Positions 24,766 to 26,482 of a DNA stretch of 32,481 nt are shown here, piece after piece. The stretch is from Chlamydiota bacterium (GTDB lineage Bacteria > Chlamydiota > Chlamydiia > Chlamydiales > JAJFMI01): positions 1 through 32,481 of the forward strand of contig JAJFMI010000007.1 of NCBI GenBank assembly GCA_021772235.1, given 5' to 3'. The notes beneath the pieces are model-generated. The model was not told the origin of the DNA and made no database searches. It saw only the letters and a list, made by a program, of their open reading frames with translations. Position numbers and translations under genes: made by a program. Position 1 is the first letter of the stretch; every line of letters begins with the position of its first letter.

Positions 24766-26482
24766 GATTGTTCAAGAGCGCGCTAGCTGCGCGATCCAAA
24801 AAGTATTTCCCGACAAAATAGAGCCTGCGCAGGTTACGCCCAGTACGCAGGGGCATTTTGGTCACTACCAGTGCAATGACGCTTTGCGTTTAGCAAAACT
24901 GAAGCGCCAAAATCCTCGAGAGGTTGCGGCCAAAATCATTGAACATTTTCCGAACGACGACGAATTTGCCGTTAAAATGGAAATTGCCGGTCCTGGTTTC
25001 ATTAATATTTTTCTCAATCCAAAAGTCTTAAGCGAAAGAGCGAATCAACTTCTTGCCGATCCACGTCTTGGAGTGCCCAAGCTGGCAAAGCCAAAGCGCA
25101 TGATTGTCGAGTTTTCCTCTCCCAATATTGCAAAAGAGTTGCATGTGGGCCATTTACGATCGACGATCATTGGCGATGCGCTCGCGCGTTTGATGGAATT
25201 TCTCGGGCATGATGTTTTGCGTCTCAATCACATTGGCGATTGGGGTACTAATTTTGGCATGCTAATTTCTTAATTAAAATAGTGGAAGCCATAATTAATT
25301 TCTGGTAGAAAAAAAGCGACCCTAAAAGAGCTGATGGAGTGGTACCGCGATTCGAAAAAGGTTTTTGATGAAGATCCTGCATTTAAGAAGCGCGCTCAAG
25401 AAGAGGTGGTGCGTTTGCAGAGTGGTGATGAAGAATCTTTATCTGCTTGGAAACAAATCTGTGAAATCTCTCGCGTCGCCTTTAAGGAAATTTACGGTCT
25501 GCTCGATGTAAAACTCGAAGAGCGCGGTGAATCGTTTTACAATCCTTTTCTCCCAGAAATTGTCGAAGATTTGGAGAAGAAAAAACTCATCACGCTTTCT
25601 GATGGGGCCAAGTGCGTTTTTCTCGATGGCTTTGTTAATAAGCAAGGCGATCCACTGCCGATGATTGTGCAAAAATCCGATGGTGGTTTCAATTATTCCA
25701 CAACGGATATGGCAGGGATGCGCCATCGCATTGAAAAAGAAAAAGCGGAACGCATTGTTGTTGTGACCGACGCTGGGCAGAGTTTGCACTTTCAAATGAT
25801 CGCCGCGGCATGCAATAAAGCGGGTTACCTCGATCCGAAGAAAACGCAATTTGATCACGTGCCATTTGGTGTAGTCTTAAACACTTCTGGTAAAAAGTTC
25901 AAAACGCGCGAGGGCTCGACAGAGCCGCTCGTTTCTCTTTTGCAAGAGGGAATTGATCATGCGAAAAAACTCCTCTCAGAGCGCCTGCACAACGATCCTG
26001 AGCTAGATGAGCTAGCGACTATTTTAGGAATTGATTCGATTAAATATGCCGATCTTTCCTGCCATCGTATCAAAGATTACGTCTTTAGCTACGATCGTAT
26101 GTTAAAATTTGAAGGGAACACAGCTGCGTACCTTCTTTATTCCTTTGTGCGTATTCAAGGGATCAAGCGCAAAGTGGGCAAAGATTTGGATGAAGTGGTA
26201 GAGGTTGCCAAAATCACTCTCGAGCATCCCAGTGAAATTACTCTTGGGTTAAAGCTTTCTCAATTTGGTGAAACGCTAAAACTCATGGAGCGCGATCTTC
26301 TCCCTAATCGTCTGACGGATTATCTCTACAACTTAGCGGAAAGCTTTCACGCTTTTTTCCGCGACTGTCGCGTGGAAGGGGAAGCCCAAGAAAACTCGCG
26401 TCTGTTGCTTTGCGAAGCAACCGCCCGTATTCTGGAAAAAGGTTTTTTTATTCTCGGATTAAAAACTTTAGACAGAATGTAG
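24722..26482 (+). pseudogene. argS: Arginyl-tRNA synthetase interrupted by three in-frame stop codons (TAA 25271-25273, TAG 25280-25282, TAA 25292-25294); otherwise full length with no frameshift
   Basis: ORFs 24722..25273 and 25334..26482 are in the same frame. The N-terminal part has [19 protein letters not shown] (HIGH) and [14 protein letters not shown]. The C-terminal part resumes colinearly (LMEWYRDSKKVFDEDPAFKKRAQEEVVRLQSGDE ... FKTREGS ... DALR-type anticodon-binding domain, ending LGLKTLDRM). The gap reads S*LK*WKP*LISGRKKATLKE and keeps the length expected from other ArgRS. Confidence 0.85.
26341..26482 (+). repeat. Copy A (in-gene) of the argS 3'-terminal repeat, encoding SFHAFFRDCRVEGEAQENSRLLLCEATARILEKGFFILGLKTLDRM*
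   Basis: Aligned by hand to 27432-27570 and 29181-29297. Confidence 0.9.

Follow-up and report, generated by a model that had tools for sequence, protein, structure and literature searches.

How can a gene that a bacterium cannot do without carry three in-frame stop codons and no other lesion? The question is raised by argS, the gene for arginyl-tRNA synthetase (ArgRS), in a 32,481-nucleotide (nt) stretch of DNA from a Chlamydiota bacterium (assembly GCA_021772235.1, contig JAJFMI010000007.1, positions 1 to 32,481 of the forward strand), here called the window. An earlier note, made by reading the sequence, had pointed to the stops TAA 25271, TAG 25280 and TAA 25292, all inside 24 nt, and they are there. 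They belong to a wider patch of substitutions. The reading we favour, with about even confidence, is that this patch is a single, evolutionarily instantaneous and non-adaptive knockout of an otherwise constrained, syntenic argS, and that its likeliest source is the sequence record.

Identity of the interrupted gene

Translation of the argS frame (24722-26482, + strand) gives 586 codons and a TAG terminator. The gene and the two pieces into which the stops divide it are as follows.

24722-26482, + strand: argS, class I arginyl-tRNA synthetase, the syntenic orthologous copy; one frame with three internal stops
24722-25273, + strand: 5′ open reading frame (ORF) piece of 183 amino acids (aa), ending ...GMLIS and then TAA; N-terminal domain, HVGH motif and first two Rossmann strands
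25334-26482, + strand: 3′ ORF piece of 382 aa from the first canonical start past the stops; remaining catalytic domain and DALR anticodon-binding domain

The ATG at 25334 corresponds to Met205 of the normal protein. Pfam finds Arg_tRNA_synt_N and profile positions 4-77 of tRNA-synt_1d in the 5′ piece, and profile positions 100-349 of tRNA-synt_1d followed by DALR_1 in the 3′ piece, which together give the domain order of a class I ArgRS (Arg_tRNA_synt_N, tRNA-synt_1d, DALR_1). Homology to the solved ArgRS structures 4R3Z and 4OBY has E values of about 1e-150 to 1e-145. Stitched across the stops, the protein is 92% identical to P0001 (586 aa, from an ENA contig, locus L001), 90% identical to P0002 (from a Logan contig, locus L002) and 83% identical to P0003 (locus L003), all three of them intact ArgRS of 586-587 aa. 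P0003 belongs to Candidatus Algichlamydia australiensis, which is related to Simkaniaceae and lives as a symbiont of the dinoflagellate Cladocopium (PMC11317633). What the window's gene lacks is an uninterrupted frame with a complete invariant core: three stops break the frame, and Q177N and Y184* fall at invariant sites.

The gene order PGK, RNaseT, GTPase, TsaE, DUF2709, a hypothetical gene, ELFV dehydrogenase and argS is common to the window and all three relatives, and in all of them the dehydrogenase gene also overlaps argS by 44 nt. Because the relatives share both this order and the overlap, the interrupted gene is the orthologous housekeeping copy and no spare paralogue.

Anatomy of the stop patch

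Frame and length are kept across the stops, as the earlier note had said: the gene retains its 586 codons and has no indel relative to its orthologues. The lesion itself had been drawn too narrowly. The stops are present as described, but alignment to the three closest orthologues extends the patch to about 25249-25300. Its features, from the DNA alignment and a codon table, are these.

about 25249-25300, + strand: lesion patch; 13-16 substitutions relative to orthologues, 0 indels
25249: ACG to ACT, synonymous
Q177: CAA to AAT, Q to N
25264: CTG to CTA, synonymous
25271-25273, + strand: stop 1 at Y184; TAY (TAC or TAT in orthologues) to TAA; Tyr184 invariant in 40 relatives
25280-25282, + strand: stop 2 at E187; GAA in orthologues to TAG
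N188: AAC to TGG, N to W
Q189: CAG to AAG, Q to K
25292-25294, + strand: stop 3 at E191; GAR (GAG or GAA in orthologues) to TAA
V192: GTR to TTA, V to L

Compared with L001, there are 16 differences within 54 nt and no indel. The protein of the relatives reads ...GDWGTQFGMLISYLKENQPEVIS... here, and the window departs from it in the patch by Q177N, Y184*, E187*, N188W, Q189K, E191* and V192L; the four missense changes in this series (Q177N, N188W, Q189K and V192L) had been overlooked. The densest run is opened by stop 2, where six of seven consecutive bases are changed (25280-25286, GAAAACC to TAGTGGA). The GC fraction falls to 0.24 in the patch, the closest orthologues having 0.41 and 0.37. 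Across the 40 relatives Q177 and Y184 are invariant and P190 is near-invariant. An AlphaFold model of P0001 (pLDDT 86.9) places the stops within helices 176-188 and 190-194.

Several further claims about the patch can be settled from the alignment. The ancestral codons had been guessed as Tyr, Glu and Glu, and orthologous argS genes do carry TAC/TAT, GAA and GAG/GAA at these sites. The statement that each stop lies one substitution from a sense codon is right for TAY to TAA and wrong for GAA, the codon of all three relatives, to TAG, which needs two; GAG/GAA to TAA needs one or two. Every recognisable ArgRS motif had been called intact, which does not apply to Q177, a residue of the GDWGTQFG motif that is invariant in the 40 relatives and is now N. 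The inverted arms TTAATTA (25270-25276) and TAATTAA (25292-25298) exist, but their symmetry is at chance level, as the window contains 92 inverted repeats of 7 nt like them and 8.6% of patch shuffles contain one.

Clustering, spectrum and recency

We polarised the changes with L001 and L002, which left 109 window-specific substitutions in argS, 97 outside the patch and 12 inside. A scan statistic on these substitutions bears out the suspicion that the stops are clustered beyond random expectation (permutation p = 0.004). The spectrum of the patch is also abnormal. Inside it, 9/12 substitutions are transversions and 7/12 fall at codon positions 1 or 2; outside it, transitions make up 72/97 and transversions 25/97, and third codon positions account for 77/97. 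The transversion excess (9/12 versus 25/97) has a Fisher p of 0.0013, and the ratio of non-synonymous to synonymous codons is 7:2 in the patch versus 12:166 outside (Fisher p = 1e-6). Across seven syntenic genes (about 6.4 kb), the patch is the top cluster both of transversions and of changes at codon positions 1 and 2. The six other syntenic genes are intact relative to their orthologues, with no stop and no comparable error patch.

Ordinary pseudogene decay, with scattered lesions, indels and relaxed constraint, had been doubted from the start, and it does not describe this gene. We find no indel and no second lesion in argS, which has the same length as in L001 and L002. Outside the patch the window has 12 residue changes of its own, compared with 17 in L001 and 29 in L002, and the 13 codons from stop 3 to ATG 25334 are as well conserved as in the sister lineages. 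Three window-specific changes do touch other conserved sites: L575F and S576F (26444-26449, codons 575-576) and Y323F, with L575 invariant and Y323 near-invariant among the 40 relatives. The count of such changes at conserved argS sites is not above that of the sister lineages.

Constraint on argS was thus never visibly relaxed. Because residue changes outside the patch are few, substitutions there are mostly at third positions and indels are absent, any period of neutral decay was a tiny fraction of the branch. A period that short would not have let some 15 changes in 50 nt accrue singly, so that the patch represents one complex event, or very few, unless it is non-biological. In simulated bursts at the density of the patch, at least three in-frame stops arose in about 6.5% of cases with AT-biased changes (16 substitutions) and in about 2% with uniform changes. 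As a by-product of a burst the three stops are plausible, and they require no separate explanation.

The lesion is also unique among the sequences compared. Among 85 related loci from chlamydiae or verrucomicrobia, one per assembly, 83 have an uninterrupted, full-length argS. Of the remaining two, L066 has a scaffold gap of Ns, and in L080 the alignment extends beyond the true start. In the former, a contig of a metagenome-assembled genome (MAG; CAZBCR010000116.1), the run of Ns at about 1900-2000 covers the first 200 or so argS codons and reflects a scaffold gap or masking, not a natural truncation. The exact 53-nt patch was not found in GTDB representative genomes, where the closest relative is Candidatus Algichlamydia at 87%; a degenerate pattern of the flanks retrieved only distant relatives from JGI metagenomes; and neither argS piece nor the adjoining dehydrogenase had an exact protein match. 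No sequence of the same species was found in any collection searched (GTDB, JGI metagenomes, protein searches).

Source of the lesion

We propose that a dense, AT-biased and transversion-rich block of substitutions would have arisen in one step, and that the stops would simply have fallen out of it, as a single G-to-T or Y-to-A change is enough to turn a Tyr or Glu codon into a stop. On the side of the record, the block could come from a local consensus or assembly error, from a damaged or mis-amplified template, or from a non-viable variant captured in the assembly. If the patch is an artefact, the organism itself would carry ...TQFGMLISYLKENQPEVIS... at this place. We place the lesion in the record rather than in a living lineage because ArgRS is indispensable and there is no decay elsewhere in the gene or its neighbours; a mutational spectrum foreign to the lineage likewise favours an artefactual or non-heritable origin. 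The anatomy, recency and abnormal spectrum of the patch can be seen in the alignments, whereas the artefact is inferred.

Several points weigh against placing the fault in the record. The assembly is generally accurate: the window's other 30 main ORFs are long and uninterrupted, the Pfam domain sets of PolA (879 aa) and Rho are complete, and the six neighbouring genes are intact. AT-ward change is the natural direction of bacterial mutation too, and no common sequencing platform or assembler is known to produce, as a typical error, some 15 clustered substitutions with length preserved.

The kind of case is already known, namely an internal-stop lesion or record error in a housekeeping gene, though this one is unusually dense. 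It resembles the internal-stop pseudogene calls of draft genomes and MAGs in that an intact syntenic housekeeping gene under purifying selection is disrupted at one spot with no decay elsewhere. Such calls usually stem from a single nonsense change or a homopolymer frameshift, whereas here three stops and four missense changes lie in about 50 nt with no indel.

The main import of the finding is for annotation and quality control. The argS record deserves an internal-stop flag, and inventories of metabolism or essential genes in this Simkaniaceae-like lineage should not score the gene as lost. A real lesion would provide a clear-cut natural case of a one-step complex mutation killing an essential gene, and it would imply an unseen backup in the form of a second argS, complementation by co-resident genomes or unusual decoding.

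A possible real knockout

Both a recent multi-nucleotide event and an assembly or consensus error had been offered as explanations, and both are still viable; the second argS that went with the former is not in the 32-kb window. It is possible, though somewhat unlikely, that a real and very recent complex multi-nucleotide mutation killed the syntenic argS and that ArgRS activity is supplied from elsewhere. The mutation could have come from clustered damage repaired in an error-prone way, from micro-conversion with a decayed piece of argS elsewhere in the genome as donor, or from uptake of short divergent DNA, and the backup could be a further argS beyond the window or help from co-resident genomes through complementation. 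The otherwise high quality of the window makes a local error burst less likely, and changes from G:C to T:A and towards AT are natural mutational directions. The lineage has duplicated the argS 3′ tail twice, as described below, which makes other fragments or copies conceivable as donors or backups. However, neither a second argS nor a donor of the patch lies inside the 32 kb, and in the 85 related loci fetched, which are syntenic loci only, the syntenic argS is the intact copy. Moreover, most members of a population cannot have lost an essential single-copy gene unless a backup exists.

Allowing up to three mismatches, a search of the window yielded no donor for the patch. The best local alignment on both strands was 16 nt long (25297-25312 with 25546-25561), within the shuffle null, and did not cover the stops. 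Novel k-mers of at least 10 nt from the patch have no copy within 1.5 kb on each side, and viral contigs gave no match to it. The patch resembles multinucleotide clusters made by template switching or at quasi-palindromes (PMC5453318, PMC8604942) in being a length-preserving, one-step cluster with short inverted arms flanking part of it. Unlike those, it has no nearby template of at least 10 nt from which the new sequence was copied, the spacer between the arms is not, by eye, the reverse complement of the ancestral one, and the arms are at chance level.

The 16-nt pair is an inverted repeat, 15/16 complementary, with one arm at the 3′ edge of the patch and the other in the PFLPEIV codons, 233 nt farther downstream. 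Of the four window-specific changes at 25297-25312, three raise complementarity to 25546-25561, and the score is within the window-wide shuffle null.

Three other origins were considered and rejected. A small inversion, or inversion of the spacer, does not fit, as the reverse complements do not match. A compensated frameshift would need YLKENQPEVIS to be encoded in another frame, and it is not. Mutagenesis of the diversity-generating retroelement (DGR) type is excluded by the altered ancestral bases, which are mostly G and C and not A.

A possible split synthetase or deliberate edit

A naturally split ArgRS had also been suggested, in which the 183-aa N-piece and the 382-aa C-piece starting at ATG 25334 would be produced as separate chains that associate non-covalently. 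We regard this as very unlikely. Split class I synthetases do exist, as in the two-subunit LeuRS of Aquifex and engineered fragments of MetRS and IleRS, and enzymes of this class tolerate engineered cuts in the region concerned. The window is like them in that the break falls between the two Rossmann-fold halves and leaves two long, intact ORFs with the expected Pfam domains. It differs in where exactly the chain is cut and in what is lost. The break is not at a loop or domain boundary; in the AlphaFold model it cuts helices 176-188 and 201-217, with the Met205 restart inside the second. The two pieces would omit 21 residues, including the invariant Y184, L201 and L204 and the near-invariant P190, as well as 22 positions (78-99) of the Pfam catalytic profile.

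Nor do the pieces have expression signals of their own. The AAAGAG to which the earlier note had drawn attention is only 3 nt before ATG 25334 and is ancestral, occurring also in L002, and promoter-like sites are at chance (4 found versus 3.0 expected). The AT-richness of the patch matches the intergenic spacers of this genome, but the presumed spacer has neither drift nor indels, which leaves no visible period as two genes. No relative shares the split. A protein search with the C-piece had a best hit of 94% and returned no split form among the best 120 hits; the short ArgRS among these are contig-end truncations only.

A deliberate or in-silico edit, a knockout-style lesion, is just as improbable. 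Three stops in 24 nt, together with the presence in the patch of the window's only TTAATTAA (a PacI site), speak for it, and they come from an organism with no same-species sequence in the collections searched, whose tested proteins had no exact match and no homologue above 94%. The layout of the patch speaks against it: there is no recognisable three-frame stop cassette, one frame staying open until 25306; pointless missense and synonymous changes are included; and sequence has been replaced rather than inserted. We know of no genetic system for the group.

Possible translational bypass and readthrough

A geometry that the earlier note overlooked would let a ribosome skip the stops. Two copies of a short direct repeat flank them.

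25263-25270, + strand: left copy of the 8-nt direct repeat TAATTTCT (..L I S); TCT 25268-25270, then stop 1
25296-25303, + strand: right copy of TAATTTCT; TCT 25301-25303, 33 nt downstream

This TCT/TCT repeat is the only hop or deletion geometry that removes all three stops in frame. In a programmed bypass, peptidyl-tRNA-Ser would detach from TCT 25268-25270 and re-pair with TCT 25301-25303, yielding ArgRS minus 11 residues. Matched codons and a stop after the take-off codon are hallmarks of T4 gene 60 (PMC7026636), and both are found here: the take-off and landing codons match, each within a copy of TAATTTCT, and a stop directly follows take-off. As in T4 gene 60 and yeast mitochondrial bypass (PMC7026636, PMC5462505), the gap is closed in all frames, here within it or just past it. 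Unlike in those systems, the gap is 33 nt and not 50 nt, no stem-loop forms, and the skipped stretch is homologous coding sequence. The segment 25259-25306 has no take-off stem-loop (minimum free energy -2.3 kcal/mol, z = +1.2) and folds more weakly than the orthologous sequence, and its 106-nt context (25240-25345) is unstructured (z = +0.57). Rfam has no hit in the window. The gap is no insertion, since it is homologous codon for codon to YLKENQPEVIS, with conserved residues, and a product lacking it would lose three helical turns. The repeat itself went from about 5-6/9 identity in orthologues to 8/9 here through AT-ward changes, so that AT-ward drift of two (L/V)-I-S codon triplets explains it. 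We consider a programmed bypass highly improbable.

Stop-codon readthrough or reassignment giving a full-length ArgRS, an idea of the earlier note that the preserved frame recommends, has next to no chance: TAA (10) and TAG (5) end 15 of the 31 main ORFs in the window, the compared ORFs align to their orthologues essentially end to end, no internal stop occurs in the other syntenic genes compared, the window has no tRNA gene and hence no suppressor tRNA, three consecutive stops multiply already small readthrough rates, and N188W and Q177N reveal a stretch free of protein constraint.

That the stops are real and are tolerated through the 33-nt hop (TCT 25268 to TCT 25301) or a functional two-piece ArgRS has, in our view, a very slim chance. 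If it were true, the hop would represent the first case of a bypass element arising in situ in a bacterial housekeeping gene, and the two-piece enzyme would be, as far as is known, the first natural split ArgRS, caught at birth. The functional readings are improbable even when taken jointly. On the reading we favour, the patch is not a device maintained by selection and holds no split gene, hop or recoding signal.

The 3′ end of argS

The downstream end of the gene has a history of its own. The argS 3′ tail is found three times in the window: at the true end (26341-26479) and in extra copies at 27432-27570 and about 29175-29294. At the nucleotide level the copy at 27432-27570 is 81% identical to the true end. 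Both extra copies keep the ancestral ...KGLSILG..., where the true argS now reads ...KGFFILG..., and they were not found in the fetched stretches of L001, L002 and L003. Each lies just upstream of a minus-strand gene (27590-28183 and 29317-29907) of one small paralogous family with no Pfam match. The second tail copy with its 197-aa gene reproduces the junction between argS and a 197-aa gene seen in L001. We found no link between the duplications of the 3′ tail and the stop patch. The genes of this region are listed here.

26468-27355, - strand: 295-aa ORF, no Pfam match; in the low-GC segment, overlapping the argS stop by 15 nt
27590-28183, 28252-28776 and 29317-29907, - strand: tandem family of small proteins, 174-197 aa, no Pfam domain
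30301-31281, - strand: eukaryotic-type Ser/Thr protein kinase gene (Pkinase, E = 7e-34), adjoining the paralogue cluster

The 3′ end of argS looks like a hotspot of insertion or duplication in this lineage. The copies suggest repeated insertion or duplication there, possibly of cassettes that carry a mimic of the end of their target gene.

The part of the Algichlamydia locus (L003) fetched for comparison showed no counterpart of the kinase gene. A low-GC segment (about 30-35%) of some 1.1 kb has been inserted between the true argS end and the ancestral downstream junction. Paralogues of the tandem family occur as single genes downstream of argS in L001 and L002 and, in L003, as three genes in tandem (13949-15740), and the paralogue that adjoins argS differs between relatives. 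The 295-aa ORF is 36% identical to a 318-aa gene of Candidatus Algichlamydia (L003 11735-12691) that also overlaps the end of argS.

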